Below, one piece after another: positions 14,800 to 20,455 of a DNA stretch of 64,000 bases (positions are counted from its first letter, which is position 1; the number at the start of each line of letters is the position of its first letter). This DNA comes from Escherichia coli (GTDB taxonomy: Bacteria > Pseudomonadota > Gammaproteobacteria > Enterobacterales > Enterobacteriaceae): the NCBI RefSeq assembly GCF_030013595.1, contig NZ_CP122768.1; one strand, 5' to 3'. The position numbers and the translations under genes are program-made. The notes below the pieces were generated by a model. That model was not told the DNA's origin and made no database searches. It saw only the letters and a program-made list of their open reading frames with translations.

Positions 14800-15266
14800 T
14801 GGAAATAAAGCTCATCGATAATCCGGTGAAGCTTGCAGAATTCCTCAACAACCCGGCAAACACGGGAAATATCGTAGATAGTGGAGATAAATACTACATC
14901 AAGCCTGATGCGGTATACCTCGGCATCTACGAAGGATTAGTGCTGGCTGGCGTTCATGAAGTGCGTAACTTCTGGCATAGCGTTGTTGAATGCCATGCGG
15001 TGTACGACCCCGGATTCCGTGGTGAATATGCACTGCAAGGGCATCGATTATTCTGCAAGTGGCTTCTCGAAAACTCACCATTCCTTAACAGCATTACCAT
15101 GGTTCCTGACACCACGAAATACGGACGGGCAATTATCCGTTTGCTTGGCGCTACCCGTGTTGGTCACCTTGATGATGCGTACATGAGTAACGGAAAACCG
15201 GTTGGAATCACCCTCTATCAATTACCTCGTTCAAAATATGAGGAGCTATTAAATGTTAGTACTTAG
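14796..15266 (+). CDS. P22 gp14-like assembly/ejection-associated protein
   Basis: 156 aa in the position of P22 gene 14. Confidence 0.55.
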
Positions 15267-15933
15267 CGAAAGCTTCAAGAATAAATTGCTTCCCATGAAT
15301 GGGTATATGAAAGGCGGCAGCGACTCCGGATCTAAAGCCCAGGCACGCGCAACTGAAAAGGGCATCGAACTGCAGCGTGAAATGTGGCAAACGAACATGC
15401 AGAACCTTGCACCGTTCACGCCACTCGCTAAGCAGTACGTATCACAGTTGCAGAATCTTTCCTCTCTTCAGGGGCAAGGTCAGGCGCTTAACCAGTATTA
15501 CAACTCTCAGCAGTATAAAGACCTTGCAGGGCAGGCACGCTATCAGAGTCTGGCAGCAGCAGAGGCAACGGGTGGATTAGGCTCTACAGCAACAGGAAAC
15601 CAGTTAGCAGCAATCGCACCTACACTCGGTCAAAACTGGCTGTCAGGTCAGATGAACAACTACAACAATCTGGCAAACATTGGCCTTGGTGCTCTTACAG
15701 GTCAGGCAAACGCTGGGCAGAACTACGCTAACAACGTCAGCCAATTGTATCAACAGCAGGCGGCAGCATCTGCGGCGAATGCTAACCGACCATCAGGACT
15801 GCAATCAGCCTTGGGAGGTGCCATGAGCGGTGCGGCATCAGGGGCGATGATTGGCTCTGTGGTGCCAGGAATAGGTACAGCTGTTGGCGCTATTGGTGGC
15901 GGTATTATCGGTGGTCTTGGATCATTGTTTTAA
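15253..15933 (+). CDS. Ejection (internal) protein, P22 gp7-like
   Basis: 226 aa; Gln/Ala/Gly-rich low-complexity protein with Gly-rich C-terminus; syntenic with P22 gene 7. Confidence 0.7.
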   Translation: MLVLSESFKNKLLPMNGYMKGGSDSGSKAQARATEKGIELQREMWQTNMQNLAPFTPLAKQYVSQLQNLSSLQGQGQALNQYYNSQQYKDLAGQARYQSLAAAEATGGLGSTATGNQLAAIAPTLGQNWLSGQMNNYNNLANIGLGALTGQANAGQNYANNVSQLYQQQAAASAANANRPSGLQSALGGAMSGAASGAMIGSVVPGIGTAVGAIGGGIIGGLGSLF

Positions 15934-15942
15934 GGTGGGAAT

Positions 15943-17325
15943 ATGGCTAGTTGGCAACAAGGAATCAACTCAGGCGGCTTTCTTGCTGGTATCGGTGGGC
16001 AAAACTCAAATGCGCCAAAGGCAAGTGATGTAAGTGAGGCGTTGGCCTATATTCGCCAGAACAACGAAATGGAGCGCTCAGGTCGCAATAACATCGGCCT
16101 TCAGGCGTTGCAGGGGCTTGGTAGTGTCGCTCAAACATATCAAGCCGCAAAGCAACAGGAATTCCAAAAAGAATATGCGGCAGCCATCCAGTCAGGTGAT
16201 CGGCAGCAGGTGCGAGATCTGATGACCAAATATCCTGGTCAATTAGAGAAGATTCAGTCTGGTATGAAGTGGGCAGACGAAGACCAGCGCAATTCTATCG
16301 GCACCTTAGCGGCTGGCGCACGCCTTGCGTCATCGTCTCCAGAAGCAATGCAATCATGGCTGCAAAACAACGCCAAGGAACTGGCGCGCGTCGGTGTTGA
16401 CCCTAACAGCGTTGCTCAGATGTATCAGCAAAACCCTTCAGGATTTGGTGAGTTTGTTGATCACCTTGGAATGGCTGCTCTTGGTCCGATTGATTACTTC
16501 AATGTTCAGGACAAGATGGCTGGTCGTGAAATTGACCGAGGCAAACTGGCAGAGACAATCCGCAGCAATCAGGCTGGCGAGGCGCTAACAGCACGAGGCC
16601 AGAACATCACGATGCGCGGTCAGGACTTATCTGCTTCTACTGCGCGACGAGGTCAGGATTTGGCAATGCAGCGAGCGTCAACAAGACGAATCGCTGGGAA
16701 TGATGAGCGTACAGTTCAGTTATCAGATGGCAGAACTGTAACGGTAGGCGGGAAGCTTCACGGCGCTGGGGCTAATGCGTTCTACGAAGGCATCGACAAC
16801 GAGGGGAATATGGTTCGCGTCCCTGCTGGCTCTATTGCCGCTCCGGCTACATCGGCAGCAAGCGCGCAGAATTACGCAATGAAGAAAGATCTTGATGCAA
16901 TTTCTGGTGCATCAATTGACGATCTTGGCTTCATGACTGGCATTACAGGCTCTTCAGGTTCTCCTGCTCTTGGTGCAGATATTCGTAGCCGTGCATCTGG
17001 TGGTGATCAGAGGAAACTATACAACGCTGCACAGCGAATCCAAGGAAAGATGCAGAATCAGGGCATTGCAGCAGCCAGAGACATGGGGGCATCCGGTATC
17101 AACACCGTTGCAGAAGCAAAGATGTATTTTCAAGGTATGCCACAGGTTGATTTCTCAAGCCCTGAAGCACTGCAACAATCAATGCGCGACATTCAGCAAT
17201 ATACCGACAATTACAACCAGCAATATAACGTTAATGTTGGTAAATCTCAGCGGCAGCAATCTCAACCTGCACAGGTATCACAGCCAGCAGCCAGCAGTAA
17301 CTTTTCTTCACTATGGGGTGATTAA
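15943..17325 (+). CDS. Ejection protein, P22 gp20-like
   Basis: 460 aa; position and composition as P22 gene 20. Confidence 0.7.
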
Positions 17326-19430
17326 TGGCTAAAGCATGGAAAGATGTTATCGCTTCTCCACAGTATCAGGCGTTAGCACCAGAACAAAAAGCGCAGGCTC
17401 AGGAGCAATACTTCAATGAAGTCGTGGCCCCGCAAGCCGGAGAAAGTGTAGAGCAGGCTAAGCAGGCTTTTTATGCTGCCTATCCACTACCATCAACGAA
17501 TGAAATAGACCGATACCAATCAGCAACTCAAAATATTCAACATACATCATCTGATAATTCTCTTGCGTCAGGGTATGCAAAGTTAGCTACTCAGCAAAGA
17601 GAGGGGCTTGAGCGTTCAGCAGAACAGGGAGCCAGTCTTGGGGCTGCGATGCGCGATGCTATAACAGGCGAAAGCCGAATGACTCCAGAGATGGAGAGAC
17701 TGCAAAATGTCGACCTTGCCCCAGAGTTAACCTCACTCAGCATGGATGCTCTAAAAGCTCGATGGTCTCAACTTTTCGGCTCTGACGCATCTCAGGAAAA
17801 GATTCTTCAGAGCATGGGAGCGAAATTAAGGCAGGATGAGAAGGGGAACACTATCGTTTCCCTGCCATCCGGTGATTATGCTCTGAACAAGCCGGGTTTA
17901 TCGCCGCAAGACGTGGCATCGTTTCTGGCTAATGCGCTGGCGTTTACACCAGCGGGCAGGGCTGGAACGGTGCTTGGTGCCATAGGAAAATCAGCAGCTA
18001 CAGATTTAGCACTACAGGGAGCCACCAGCCTTGCTGGTGGAGAAGATATTGATCCGTTACAAACGGTAATTTCTGCTGGCATTGGTGGTATTGGTAAGGG
18101 GCTGGAAAATACAGCGAGTGCGGTTTCGAGGGCTGTTCGTGGTGATATGTCGCCTGAAGCAAAGGCTGCTGTCGACTTTGCATCGGAAAGAAATCTGCCG
18201 TTAATGACCAGTGACATGCTGAAAGATAAAACCTTTATGCAGAGTCAGGCTCAGACATTAGGCGAAAGAGTTCCTTTTTTTGGAACCGGTAAGAATCGGC
18301 TGAATCAACAACAAGCACGAGAAAATTTAGTCAGAACATTTAGCGATGGTCTGGGTGGTATTTCTGATAAACAGCTTTATGAATCTGCGACTAAAGGGCA
18401 ACAAAAATTCATTGAGGCAGCAGGAAAGCGATATAACCGCATAATTGACGCTATGGGGGATACCCCTGTCGATCTCTCAAACACGGTAAAAGCTATCGAC
18501 AATCAGATTGCCGTGTTAAGCCGCCCGGGCAAATCTCAGGATAGAGCCGCGGTAAAAGTCTTGCAGCAATTTAAAGACGATATCACCAGCGGGCCAAATG
18601 ACCTGCGTCTGGCGAGGGAAAACAGAACCGATCTTCGAAAGCGATTTATGGCGTCATCTGACACTGTTGATAAAGATACGCTCCAGAAAGCCAGCGATAT
18701 TATCTACAAGGCATATACGGCGGATATGAAAAAAGCCGTAGCCAAAAATCTTGGAGCAGACGAAGCCATTAATATGGCAAGGGTTGATCGCTCATGGTCT
18801 AAATTCAATGACATGATGGGAAGAACGCGCGTTCAAAAGGCAATAGCCAGCGGCAAGGCCACGCCTGAGGATGTAACAAAACTCGTTTTTAGCCAAAGCC
18901 CATCAGAACGTTCTCAGCTTTACAGGCTTCTGGATGACAATGGTAGGCAAAACGCACGAGCAGCCATAGTTCAGAATGCTGTAGATAAGGCGACTGATCC
19001 GTCTGGAAATATCAGTGTTGAGAAGTTTATTAATGCGTTACACCGGAACAGGAAGCAATCAGCAACTTTCTTTAAAGGCGTACATGGAAAGGAACTGGAC
19101 GGCGTTATTAAATACCTCAACGATACAAGACACGCGGCAAAAGCGAACGTTCAAAACTTAAATGGTCAGCAGCTTTATGGATTGTTAGTTGGTGGTGGCA
19201 TCATAAACGCAGCAGTATTAGCGGGGATGCTAAAAACGGCTGCGTTTGTTGTTCCTGCTGCTGGTGCCGTAGGCGGAGCAGCGAAGGCATACGAAAGCCC
19301 TGTTATACGAAATGCCTTGTTACGTCTGGCAAATACGCCAAAAGGTAGCACAGCATATGACAGAGCGATCAGTACGGTCACACAATCGCTCACCAGAGTC
19401 GCACAGGCATCACAAAAAGAAGCTCAATAA
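17325..19430 (+). CDS. Ejection protein, P22 gp16-like (longer than I recall for P22)
   Basis: 701 aa; last gene of the rightward virion operon. Confidence 0.7.
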   Translation: MAKAWKDVIASPQYQALAPEQKAQAQEQYFNEVVAPQAGESVEQAKQAFYAAYPLPSTNEIDRYQSATQNIQHTSSDNSLASGYAKLATQQREGLERSAEQGASLGAAMRDAITGESRMTPEMERLQNVDLAPELTSLSMDALKARWSQLFGSDASQEKILQSMGAKLRQDEKGNTIVSLPSGDYALNKPGLSPQDVASFLANALAFTPAGRAGTVLGAIGKSAATDLALQGATSLAGGEDIDPLQTVISAGIGGIGKGLENTASAVSRAVRGDMSPEAKAAVDFASERNLPLMTSDMLKDKTFMQSQAQTLGERVPFFGTGKNRLNQQQARENLVRTFSDGLGGISDKQLYESATKGQQKFIEAAGKRYNRIIDAMGDTPVDLSNTVKAIDNQIAVLSRPGKSQDRAAVKVLQQFKDDITSGPNDLRLARENRTDLRKRFMASSDTVDKDTLQKASDIIYKAYTADMKKAVAKNLGADEAINMARVDRSWSKFNDMMGRTRVQKAIASGKATPEDVTKLVFSQSPSERSQLYRLLDDNGRQNARAAIVQNAVDKATDPSGNISVEKFINALHRNRKQSATFFKGVHGKELDGVIKYLNDTRHAAKANVQNLNGQQLYGLLVGGGIINAAVLAGMLKTAAFVVPAAGAVGGAAKAYESPVIRNALLRLANTPKGSTAYDRAISTVTQSLTRVAQASQKEAQ

Positions 19431-19448
19431 CTGGTTAGCCATGGATGG

Positions 19449-19637
19449 TTATTTCCTTAGCACATGAAACAATGTTTGCTTTAATTCCACCCATACAATT
19501 ATGACCACTATAGACAGACAAAAGAAACTGAATGCATTGGCATCACGATCGAAACCTTCTCCGGCACTAAATCCGTAAAAGGTCATAAAAAATATAAAAA
19601 TTGCGCACTTTGCAACGTTTACAAATTTTTTCTTCAC
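19449..19637 (-). CDS. Hypothetical small membrane protein (moron, antisense to late operon)
   Basis: 62 aa, two predicted hydrophobic helices, low GC; lies where P22 carries sieA. Confidence 0.4.
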   Translation of the reverse strand: MKKKFVNVAKCAIFIFFMTFYGFSAGEGFDRDANAFSFFCLSIVVIIVWVELKQTLFHVLRK

Positions 19638-20011
19638 ACCAACCTCCTTAGTTTTGCTCAGGATACCAGATGATACTTTATTGGTGGAGTGGTGTGTGAA
19701 AACGTGTCAACGACAAACCATCCACAACTTGGACGAATGATTTAGCAAAAAGTGCTATTTTTGGTGTTTAGTGTCATAGAAAAGTGAATAGCTCACTTTT
19801 CAACATTGCATGAAACTTGCAGGAAATGTGACATTACCTTATAGGTAATTTCGGCGAAAATGCAGTAAATGTGAAACGTAATGGTTTAAACATGTCGCTA
19901 AAGTGGTTGTAAGTTAGCCTCCGAAGGATTGCTGATAGCTTTGTTATAGTATTAAATGACATTTGACATAGTTGGATACTTAGCTGTGGCTATCAAGATG
20001 GAGGTGTGTTC

Positions 20012-20455
20012 ATGCTTACTTGTTTTGATGTCGCCGACTACTTCCTGTCGCGGTGTGACGAGGATAGCGGTGACACAATCTCTAATTTAAAATTACAAAA
20101 GCTTGTTTACTATGCTCAGGGGTTTTCATTGGCGTTGCTTGGTGAGCCTCTTTTTCAGAATAAGATGGAAGCTTGGATGCATGGCCCTGTTGTCCCTGAG
20201 CTTTATCGCCGTTATAAACAATATGGTAATGGAGCTATCCCTTCTCCAGAGTCTTTTGATGCTGAAAAATTCAGCGAAGAACAGTTAGAGCTATTAGAAG
20301 AAGTCTGGGATGTTTTTGGGCAATTTTCTGCCTGGAAACTGAGGAACATGACACACGAAGAGTCACCATGGAGATCAAACTATATTGAGGGTGTTGGTGG
20401 TTCTGAAATTAGCTCTAAGGAGATGGCAGAGTACTTTGCAACTCGGATTAACTAA
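20012..20455 (+). CDS. DUF4065 / Panacea-domain protein (putative antitoxin, PanA/SocA-like)
   Basis: Motif LKLQKLVYYAQGFSLALLGEPLF...EAWMHGPVVPELYRRYKQYG typical of DUF4065 phage-associated proteins; GGAGG 7 nt upstream of ATG 20012 (the ORF track uses GTG 20006). Confidence 0.65.
   Translation: MLTCFDVADYFLSRCDEDSGDTISNLKLQKLVYYAQGFSLALLGEPLFQNKMEAWMHGPVVPELYRRYKQYGNGAIPSPESFDAEKFSEEQLELLEEVWDVFGQFSAWKLRNMTHEESPWRSNYIEGVGGSEISSKEMAEYFATRIN

Follow-up and report, generated by a model that had tools for sequence, protein, structure and literature searches.

A gp16-family ejection protein of 701 amino acids in an Escherichia coli P22-like prophage: ordinary length, mosaic gene structure and near-identical copies in PICI satellites

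The stretch of Escherichia coli DNA analysed here (64,000 nucleotides of contig NZ_CP122768.1, referred to below as the window) contained a single intact ORF of 701 aa on the plus strand (17325..19430, ATG start), encoding a gp16-family ejection (“injection” or DNA transfer) protein. This was very probably a standard member of the gp16 family of ejection proteins, belonging to a P22-like (Lederbergvirus-type) prophage and of a length ordinary for its family. A preliminary description made from the sequence had called the protein an “extended” gp16; the label was wrong because P22 gp16, the protein used for comparison, is a short outlier. Size variation and mosaicism are well documented for P22-like ejection proteins. 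The gene was a mosaic of three parts and, outside the window, the same allele was found mostly in PICIs rather than in phages, linking P22-like prophages with EcCIMP1-type satellites.

The gene was the third of a gp7-gp20-gp16 cluster with the needle and gp14 genes on one side and the immI/tailspike region on the other, and its identification as the gene of the last ejection protein, 701 aa long, was correct. The two preceding genes, also on the plus strand, encoded a gp7-type ejection protein of 226 aa (15253..15933; Pfam PF25688 P22_gp7, E=8e-92; PHROG 598, “DNA ejection”) and a gp20-type ejection protein of 460 aa (15943..17325; Pfam PF16928 Inj_translocase, E=2e-68). The latter ended in an Sf6/CUS-3-type C-terminal tail (...NFSSLWGD) and was 93% identical to Louie gp20 and 61% identical to P22 gp20 over aa 1-421. 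Pfam and PHROG searches on the neighbours gave the order needle, gp14, gp7, gp20, gp16, mnt/ant, tailspike, integrase, tRNA-Arg; the gp16 copy belonged to a P22-like prophage located at argW and lay within a complete P22-like morphogenesis operon, its flanks holding the terminase, portal, coat, gp10, needle and tailspike genes as well as the phage integrase next to tRNA-Arg. The gp16 ATG shared one base with the gp20 TAA stop (TAATG) and was preceded by a GGGGTGA Shine-Dalgarno-like run. The start codon was judged correct because the first 169-170 nt of the gene agreed at about 96% of positions with Sf6 gene 13, counted from its annotated start. No terminator was found downstream of the gene on the plus strand.

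Membership in the gp16 family, proposed in the preliminary description, was upheld by a match to PHROG 770, “DNA transfer protein” (E=1e-161; query residues 19-700 on profile positions 3-667 of 668), and by tblastn, which matched gene 16 of Sf6, L and ST64T over 100% of the query (31-33% identity) and N7 ORF13 over aa 61-701 (67% identity). The ORF was collinear over its entire length, both termini included, with N7, Sf6 and P22, and cluster representatives 94-96% identical to the query carried the precomputed label PF26808 Phage_P22_gp16. Pfam and NCBIfam scans of the 701-aa query, made with a Pfam set that did not include the PF26808 model, returned sub-threshold noise only, and for this reason the family was assigned from PHROGs, from BLAST and from the precomputed label; a sequence search of the PDB gave no match below E=0.7. 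The protein belongs to a known family, is already annotated and is very common: its cluster (P0002) had 2,417 members, the identical RefSeq protein (WP_151529489.1) is named “injection protein”, and 397 of 5,426 complete E. coli genomes held at least 80% of the gene.

The length given for P22 gp16 in the preliminary description was accurate: P22 gene 16 (NC_002371, 11484-13313; YP_063718) encodes 609 aa, 92 fewer than the query. The other characterised homologues were longer than that of P22 (Sf6, 665; N7, 668; Louie, 718; CUS-3, 719; HK620, 722 aa), and ejection-protein sizes are tabulated in Table 1 of PMC8954989. Among 134 full-length representatives the median was 663 aa (interquartile range 644-692), with 22% at 701 aa or more and 7% at 609 aa or less; as the 150 representatives were the best-scoring of 1,400 matches, these length statistics, like the domain statistics below, are biased towards query-like proteins. 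The length is unremarkable within the family and, for a common protein of a known family, matters little. Alignment with the homologues removed one part of the original proposal, the lengths being similar, and left another standing, a segment (aa 108-203) being missing from P22, Sf6, CUS-3 and HK620. By gap accounting, the 92 residues over P22 consisted mainly of a longer N-terminal cassette, this domain of about 95 aa and a longer C-proximal hydrophobic stretch.

The three parts of the mosaic were an Sf6/CUS-3-type head (aa 1-56), a private linker (aa 57-80) and a body (aa ~120-701). At the left mosaic edge, a junction cassette (17263..17492, plus strand) comprised the last ~60 nt of gp20 and gp16 aa 1-56 (MAKAWKDV...AAYPLP); its match to Sf6 (~96% nt identity over gene nt 1-169, 99% by sliding window in nt 1-90) ended at nt 169. 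This swapped-in head, longer than that of P22, was predicted to form one long confident helix (pLDDT 90-97), and gp20 tail type and gp16 head type were paired in all seven phages and prophages examined. The block formed by aa 1-56 and the gp20 tail may be a gp20-gp16 docking or recombination junction; gp16 and gp20 have to be cognate, and E-proteins have been described as “highly mosaically related” (PMC10461980). The linker (17493..17564, plus strand) was variable, rich in Q, S and T and predicted to be disordered (pLDDT below 50 at aa 68-79), with an alignment occupancy of 0.10-0.28; its residues 58-67 were missing in N7. From nt 361 onwards the gene shared 84-100% of its nucleotides with the alleles of 670 aa that occur in other E. 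coli P22-like prophages. GC content across the gene was 0.44-0.52, with no shift worth noting at the mosaic boundaries.

The segment at aa 108-203 (17646..17933, plus strand) was an alpha/beta domain of about 95 aa with the motif TGxxRxTPE...APELN...RQDEKGNxIxxLPSGxYALNKPGxSxQD. It was confidently folded in the full-length AF2 model (overall pLDDT 81), and modelled in isolation it reached pLDDT 65, below its value in the full-length context. The domain was not found in P22, Sf6 (by profile search), CUS-3, HK620 or Louie; among 140 representatives it was detected in 62 by phmmer and in 99 by profile (44-71%), in many genera. P22 and Sf6 either lost it or never had it. A Pfam scan of 55 sequences of the domain gave no match, and neither did a fold search. 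Functional work on gp16 (P22, Sf6, L, CUS-3, HK620) has used proteins without this domain, and since many family members carry it, the model gp16 proteins are not representative.

Downstream of this domain the predicted architecture was that of the family. A Gly/Ala-rich segment of low confidence (aa 204-270; 17934..18134, plus strand; pLDDT 33-43) was conserved, with a family occupancy of ~0.95-0.98, and was followed by a conserved all-helical core (aa 277-610; 18153..19154, plus strand; pLDDT mostly 85-98, falling to 74 around aa 501-510). Of 141 family sequences, 137 were matched by segment 201-420 and likewise 137 by segment 421-610, including P22 and Sf6, and 131 by segment 611-701. A C-proximal hydrophobic stretch (aa 615-653; 19167..19283, plus strand), a putative membrane-inserting element, had 10 residues (635-644) more than P22 and Sf6, and hydropathy prediction gave a peak Kyte-Doolittle 19-residue mean of 1.79, against no window above 1.2 in P22. 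The conserved Gly614, just before the stretch, aligned with P22 Gly532, a SieA-escape site; SieA-escape mutations lie in the C-terminal region of gp16, and P22 gp16 is membrane-associated (PMC10461980). The protein ended in conserved helices (aa 656-701; 19290..19427, plus strand) with the motif YES..IRNALLRLANTPKGS, and the columns of the YES..RN.LLRLANT motif showed no variation between the query, N7, Sf6 and P22.

By homology with P22 gp16, each capsid would contain roughly a dozen copies of the protein, to be expelled through the tail at infection; with gp7 and gp20 it would build a trans-envelope DNA conduit, itself acting at the inner-membrane end. P22 virions contain gp16, which is ejected during infection and needed for DNA delivery (PMC10461980, PMC8402733), and E-proteins make a trans-periplasmic conduit (PMC8402733). 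The analysis itself shows homology, synteny, mosaic boundaries, the length distribution and the predicted architecture; that the 701-aa protein is packaged in virions, is ejected, inserts into membranes and docks to gp20 we infer along the same lines.

A block in the window (17263..19448, plus strand) matched the gp16 cassette of EcCIMP1-like PICIs, with 99.5% identity by blastn to the PICI of strain C 236-04A (L013) and unrelated flanks on both sides; its right-hand break, at ~19438-19454, was confirmed across the 5,426 genomes. The window copy itself did not lie in the backbone of a PICI, which has integrase, AlpA and primase and lacks capsid and tail genes, and matched PICIs in this block only. 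In the PICIs, gp16 copies followed a primase, together with DUF2824, gp7 and gp20 (L013) or with gp20 alone (L001, L016), with no head or tail genes nearby, and a distant SieA homologue (204 aa) lay 20 nt downstream of gp16. L013 followed the published EcCIMP1 for 11.5 kb at 98.9% identity and diverged from it where gp20 begins; the 232-aa protein downstream in EcCIMP1 had no similarity to SieA. The islands with gp20 and gp16 were considered as a new satellite type, which was rejected, the family having been published as EcCIMP1 (PMC11773190). The literature search found no paper on ejection-protein-carrying satellites beyond that one.

Two other explanations of the extra length were weighed against an ordinary gp16. 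That it is artefactual (wrong start, read-through or fusion of two genes) can practically be dismissed: fused or chimeric calls do exist in public assemblies (a 1,019-aa gp20+gp16 protein, P0004; primase domains joined to 43% of the query, P0115; and P0116), but the start shared with Sf6 gene 13, the translational coupling to gp20, the collinear alignment of the whole ORF and the annotation in many genomes of 701-aa proteins identical to the query all argue for a genuine gene. It was also quite improbable that the extra sequence adds an activity (for instance peptidoglycan hydrolysis, as in T7 gp16) or fits the conduit to a different envelope, as the preliminary description had proposed. In its favour are the excess over P22, the confidently folded domain at aa 108-203, a match over aa 66-411 to PHROG 29864, labelled “transglycosylase”, and the existence in related elements of SLT-bearing proteins in the gp16 position. 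However, the length is typical of the family and below that of CUS-3 and HK620, and a domain spread over many genera is not a host-specific addition. Neither the query nor the domain had an SLT or other Pfam match: no SLT domain was detected in the query at E<=1, while the 906-aa protein of EcCIMP1, used as positive control, gave PF01464 at E=1e-12. The PHROG 29864 label was rejected as a functional clue, since the query had no SLT domain and P22 gp16, for which no such activity is on record, matches the same PHROG. Searches on the sequence extra to P22 gave no enzymatic domain, no Pfam match and no structural homologue, and domain prediction on this region lent no support to an added activity.

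The distribution of the allele raised a different possibility, that it is satellite-derived: the gp16 cassette would have moved recently between an EcCIMP1-like PICI and the prophage and be specialised for satellite biology, for example by differing in how sensitive it is to the SieA-like exclusion protein adjoining gp16 in PICIs, and the allele would merely occupy the phage's gp16 position in the window. At 80% coverage or more, the PICI context was found in at least 181 of the 5,426 complete E. coli genomes, against 397 that held at least 80% of the gene, and the prophage context of the window in none, which suggests exchange of the gp16 cassette between helper and satellite. Only two genomes had the right junction of the window, and these were of the 670-aa type; the three genomes sampled among carriers of the 701-aa allele all had it in PICIs; and the gene body matched no phage among 50,697 records at megablast level. 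The near-identity of the block to the PICI of strain C 236-04A, the relationship of that island to EcCIMP1 and the adjacent SieA homologue point the same way. The identity of the gene body to 670-aa alleles of ordinary P22-like prophages, however, leaves nothing demonstrably satellite-specific, and a satellite origin, though possible, was considered rather doubtful. A little less likely again was that a P22-like helper prophage and a PICI of the EcCIMP1 family had recently exchanged gp16 alone, with the crossover at the gp20-tail/gp16-head junction cassette.

If such an exchange did take place, EcCIMP1-family PICIs would keep a swappable phage-derived block (gp14, gp7, gp20, gp16 and the SieA-like gene), the DNA-delivery proteins in hijacked capsids would be those of the satellite, and the linked SieA-like protein would exclude incoming helper phage. 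Having a longer hydrophobic segment in the region targeted by SieA, the 701-aa allele would then be tuned to the conflict between satellite and helper. The SieA-like gene is a candidate for satellite-mediated superinfection immunity in the PICI variants that carry it.

The window copy was also compared with named homologues and analogues. P22 gp16 occupied the same gp7-gp20-gp16 position, showed homology (30% identity, E=3e-52) that began at ~aa 210 and extended to the C-terminus, and shared the YES..RN.LLRLANT motif and the glycine at 532, but it had a short N-terminal cassette (MKVTANGKTF) paired with a ...FTVE gp20 tail, no aa 108-203 domain and a far less hydrophobic C-proximal segment, and stood at the short extreme of the family. 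Sf6 gp13 had a nearly identical cassette, paired with a nearly identical gp20 tail (FSSLWGD), with collinear homology over its full length (33% identity), but its body was of a different sequence type, without the aa 108-203 domain and residues 635-644. N7 ORF13 and the 670-aa prophage alleles (such as WP_191519231 and WP_033809932) had the body type of the query, the aa 108-203 domain included, and a short P22-type cassette with a shorter linker, which accounted for the entire difference in length (31-33 aa).

The PICI gp16 copies (for example WP_096249158 in E. coli C 236-04A and WP_151529489 in CUPS04) were the query gene at 99.5-100% identity, whereas EcCIMP1, whose family was described by Pick et al. 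(ISME J 2025; PMC11773190), has another protein, the SLT-bearing one of 906 aa, in the gp16 position. The likeness to T7 gp16 and the large internal-core proteins of podoviruses was one of functional analogy: the protein comes last among the ejection proteins, is the largest of them and has membrane-spanning elements towards its C-terminus (PMC8954989). T7 gp16 had no detectable sequence or fold similarity to the query, which lacked the N-terminal lytic transglycosylase domain and was half its size (701 vs. ~1,318 aa; PMC8954989).

The open reading frame at window 17325-19430 (plus strand) started with ATG and comprised 701 codons. This ATG shared one base with the TAA stop codon of the upstream gene (TAATG) and was preceded by a GGGGTGA run; the start was considered secure, because the first 169-170 nt of the gene were about 96% identical to the beginning of the annotated gene 13 of Sf6. 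Its neighbourhood was that of a classic late operon of P22-like phages, with large terminase, a portal of P22 type, P22 coat protein, gp10, a needle of Sf6 type bearing a knob, gp14 (DUF2824), gp7 (PF25688), gp20 (Inj_translocase, PF16928), gp16 followed by an Mnt/Arc-Ant region, and a tailspike bearing the P22 head-binding domain. This order puts gp16 third and last among the ejection-protein genes. The prophage ended, on the minus strand (25349-26539), with a tyrosine integrase adjoining a tRNA-Arg(CCT) gene (26665-26739), beyond which lay a gene of the formate/nitrite-transporter family and mlaA; the prophage was therefore placed at argW, which the Kapi1 paper gives as the integration site of that phage. 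A gene with a SocA/Panacea domain (PF13274, E=2e-24) was located about 575 nt 3' of gp16 (20006-20455, plus strand), in the moron region on the immI side; Panacea-domain genes were also present in phage-parasitic satellite islands (PICIs), at 22492-22947 of the E. coli C 236-04A locus (L013) and in a Pectobacterium carotovorum locus (L011).

The preliminary description had called this protein extended, setting its 701 aa against about 609 aa for P22 gp16. The two lengths and the position as last ejection gene were confirmed by the open reading frame and by measurement of P22 gene 16 (609 codons), but the word "extended" did not hold: gp16 of the other reference phages measured 665-722 aa (Sf6, 665; N7, 668; Louie, 718; CUS-3, 719; HK620, 722). 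Equal figures for P22, Sf6, CUS-3 and HK620 are given in Table 1 of the Swanson, Hou and Cingolani review, where P22 and Sf6 gp16 are labelled "XS" (PMC8954989). A phmmer search against 1.84 billion cluster representatives (one per 50%-identity cluster) retrieved 1,400 relatives; within the 150 highest-scoring ones, which lean towards query-like proteins, the 134 full-length representatives (at least 550 aa) had a median length of 663 aa (interquartile range 644-692), 22% of them having 701 aa or more and only 7% having 609 aa or fewer. The PHROG 770 profile (668 positions) was spanned end to end by the 701-aa protein, and P22 gp16 covered the same profile with deletions. One 90%-identity cluster of the 701-aa form held 2,417 sequences, at least 80% of the gene was present in 397 of 5,426 complete E. 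coli genomes, and RefSeq already annotates identical proteins as "injection protein". That P22-like ejection proteins vary in size and are pervasively mosaic is established (Casjens and Thuman-Commike 2011, as cited in PMC10461980 and PMC8954989). The 701-aa gp16 is real, but ordinary and already known.

In a four-way alignment, 123 residues of this protein stood opposite P22 gaps and 31 P22 residues opposite gaps in the query (net +92), the extra residues lying at three sites: the N-terminus, residues ~108-203 and residues 635-644. At the N-terminus, a 56-residue cassette (MAKAWKDV...AAYPLP) was common to the query, Sf6, CUS-3, HK620 and Louie; P22 and N7 had a shorter MKVTANGKTF cassette. 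In a model built by AlphaFold2 from 113 aligned sequences (mean pLDDT 81, pTM 0.62), residues ~108-203 formed a small domain of helices and three strands (pLDDT 76-95) with a conserved motif, TGxxRxTPE...APELN...RQDEKGNxIxxLPSGxYALNKPGxSxQD. Sixty-two of 140 family representatives contained this domain by phmmer with the segment, and 99 of 140 by a profile built from the sequences so found; the profile did not detect it in P22, Sf6, CUS-3, HK620 or Louie, even at E<=10. Since the domain is frequent in the family and undetectable in P22 and Sf6, sequence comparison indicates that these two phages are without a module common in the wider family, and not that the query gained one. The proposal of an extra module was partly upheld, in that the domain was absent from all studied gp16; the domain is common in the family and without a detectable catalytic signature. 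Residues 635-644 fell within a Gly/Ala/Val-rich hydrophobic stretch (615-653), in which the Kyte-Doolittle mean peaked at 1.79; no P22 window exceeded 1.2. Compared with its closest relatives by body type, N7 (668 aa) and alleles of E. coli prophages (670 aa), the whole excess of 31-33 aa was in the first ~120 codons (cassette and linker). Four representatives of 757-780 aa from Pectobacterium-like sources (P0100, P0106, P0107, P0109) had a further N-terminal insertion of ~100 aa with the motif GMVEPGNIDIHNRPVVKN(A/P)DGSISTV, in which no Pfam match was found.

The query belonged to the P22 gp16 family by sequence, by synteny, by its C-terminal motifs and by its hydrophobic element; it did not belong to the lytic-transglycosylase-bearing ejection proteins. 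By analogy with P22 (PMC8402733, PMC10461980), about 12 copies would be packaged per virion and leave through the tail, and the protein would act where the gp7/gp20/gp16 conduit meets the inner membrane. P22 Gly532, a SieA-escape position reported as conserved, aligned with Gly614 of the query, where the hydrophobic stretch begins, and P22 Pro546 with Ile627, within the stretch.

Sliding-window nucleotide identity indicated that the query is a mosaic gp16: nt 1-90 of the gene were 99% identical to Sf6, nt 91-180 82% (the match stopping at nt 169), nt 181-360 only 60-71% to anything beyond its own allele, and nt 361-2106 84-100% to the 670-aa alleles of two E. coli P22-like prophages (L014, L015). 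The N-terminal cassette was inherited jointly with the end of gp20. The gp20 tail ...(N/G)FSSLWGD always accompanied the MAKAWKDV head (window, Sf6, CUS-3, HK620, Louie) and the tail ...SKSGI(K/Q)FTVE the MKVTANGKTF head (P22, N7), a pairing perfect in 7 of 7 elements, though the flanking gene bodies assort independently; four more head types each had their own gp20 tail. The junction lay at window 17263-17492 and was also present in the comparison loci L002, L003, L004, L005, L007 and L008. This pairing may mark a gp20-gp16 contact or docking interface, or it may be mere linkage of adjacent DNA combined with a conserved recombination junction. The report of Leavitt et al. (PMC10461980) that P22 can use Sf6 gp16 only if Sf6 gp20 accompanies it fits a contact without proving one.

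Among 50,697 records, no phage carrier of the gene body was found at megablast level. The CUPS04 copy (100% identical) was in an island, not a prophage, with integrase, HTH, AntA/AntB, ash, Icd, primase, gp20 and gp16 genes, and the copies of two further sampled genomes, C 236-04A and SA186 (99.6-99.7% identical), were also in such islands, ordered in C 236-04A as integrase (at thrW), AlpA, AntA/B, ash, TOPRIM/DUF927 primase, DUF2824 (gp14), P22_gp7, Inj_translocase (gp20), gp16 (701 aa) and PerC. The window gp16 cassette was 98-100% identical to the copies in these EcCIMP1-like PICIs (C 236-04A, L013 17069-19254; CUPS04, L001 19400-22124; SA186, L016 7001-9106). The PICI context, reaching from the 3' end of primase to gp16, was covered to 80% or more in no fewer than 181 of the 5,426 complete E. 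coli genomes, strain 042 included; at that coverage none had the window context (needle to gp16). Judged from this count and the three sampled genomes, the 701-aa allele appears to be mainly a satellite allele. Window 17263-19448 matched the C 236-04A PICI at 99.5% with both flanks unrelated, and the right-hand break (~19438-19454) was sharp across the whole 5,426-genome collection. The simplest reading suggests that a helper-type prophage and a PICI recently recombined, in either direction, so that the gp16 cassette alone was replaced; the left crossover would fall in the conserved junction cassette.

Primase, one or more small ORFs, gp20 and gp16 also occurred together, unaccompanied by head or tail genes, in P. 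carotovorum (JBBBPV010000007.1; L011 1-4971) and in E. coli E1739 (L009 11705-19396), the latter with a 447-aa gp20 and a 698-aa protein weakly similar to HK620 gp16; as the arrangement recurs in a second genus and with different allele pairs, the ejection-protein module looks variable but regular in such islands. Five proteins from public assemblies (P0004, P0038, P0115, P0116, P0117) were chimeras of large parts of the query (94-100% identity) with gp20, gp7, a Zn-ribbon/Toprim/DUF927 primase or DUF968, and could be real PICI/prophage rearrangements or artefacts of assembly or gene calling.

Twenty nucleotides 3' of the 701-aa gp16, the PICIs carried an oppositely oriented gene for a 204-aa protein (L013 19256-19870, L001 22126-22740 and L016 9125-9781, all minus), positioned as sieA is in P22; neither the window nor EcCIMP1 itself had this gene. 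Its product was a distant SieA homologue (29% identity to P22 SieA over 108 aa, E=8e-8) that kept the RYPGEA motif and matched PHROG 7745 (E=4e-4), making it a candidate factor for superinfection exclusion by these satellites. Sharing of the allele between helper and satellite, together with this PICI-linked gene, is a more interesting lead than length.

The additional activity suggested for the extra sequence was not detected: Pfam and NCBIfam scans of the query gave no match, nor did Pfam on 55 copies of the isolated 108-203 domain, the PDB sequence search gave no relative, and Foldseek gave no structure matching the model at E<=0.001. The "transglycosylase" label of PHROG 29864 was uninformative, as P22 gp16 matched it equally well and Pfam found no SLT domain in the query. 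The same method is able to see such a domain, since it recovered one (PF01464, E=1e-12) at the N-terminus of a 906-aa protein in the gp16 position of EcCIMP1 (L017, E. coli MP1, NZ_CP139039, 12598-15318, minus strand), which shared no BLASTP similarity with the window protein. The gp16 position can therefore hold truly extended forms with an added activity, and the query is not among them. EcCIMP1 is a PICI whose mobilisation by Kapi1, a P22-like phage, has been shown experimentally (Pick et al., PMC11773190). The C 236-04A island was 98.9% identical to it over 11.5 kb, starting at thrW and taking in the first ~160 nt of gp20, but diverged in the remaining gp20, gp16 and the next gene. The 906-aa protein of EcCIMP1, with its SLT domain, does qualify as an extended ejection protein, but it belongs to an element other than the window prophage.
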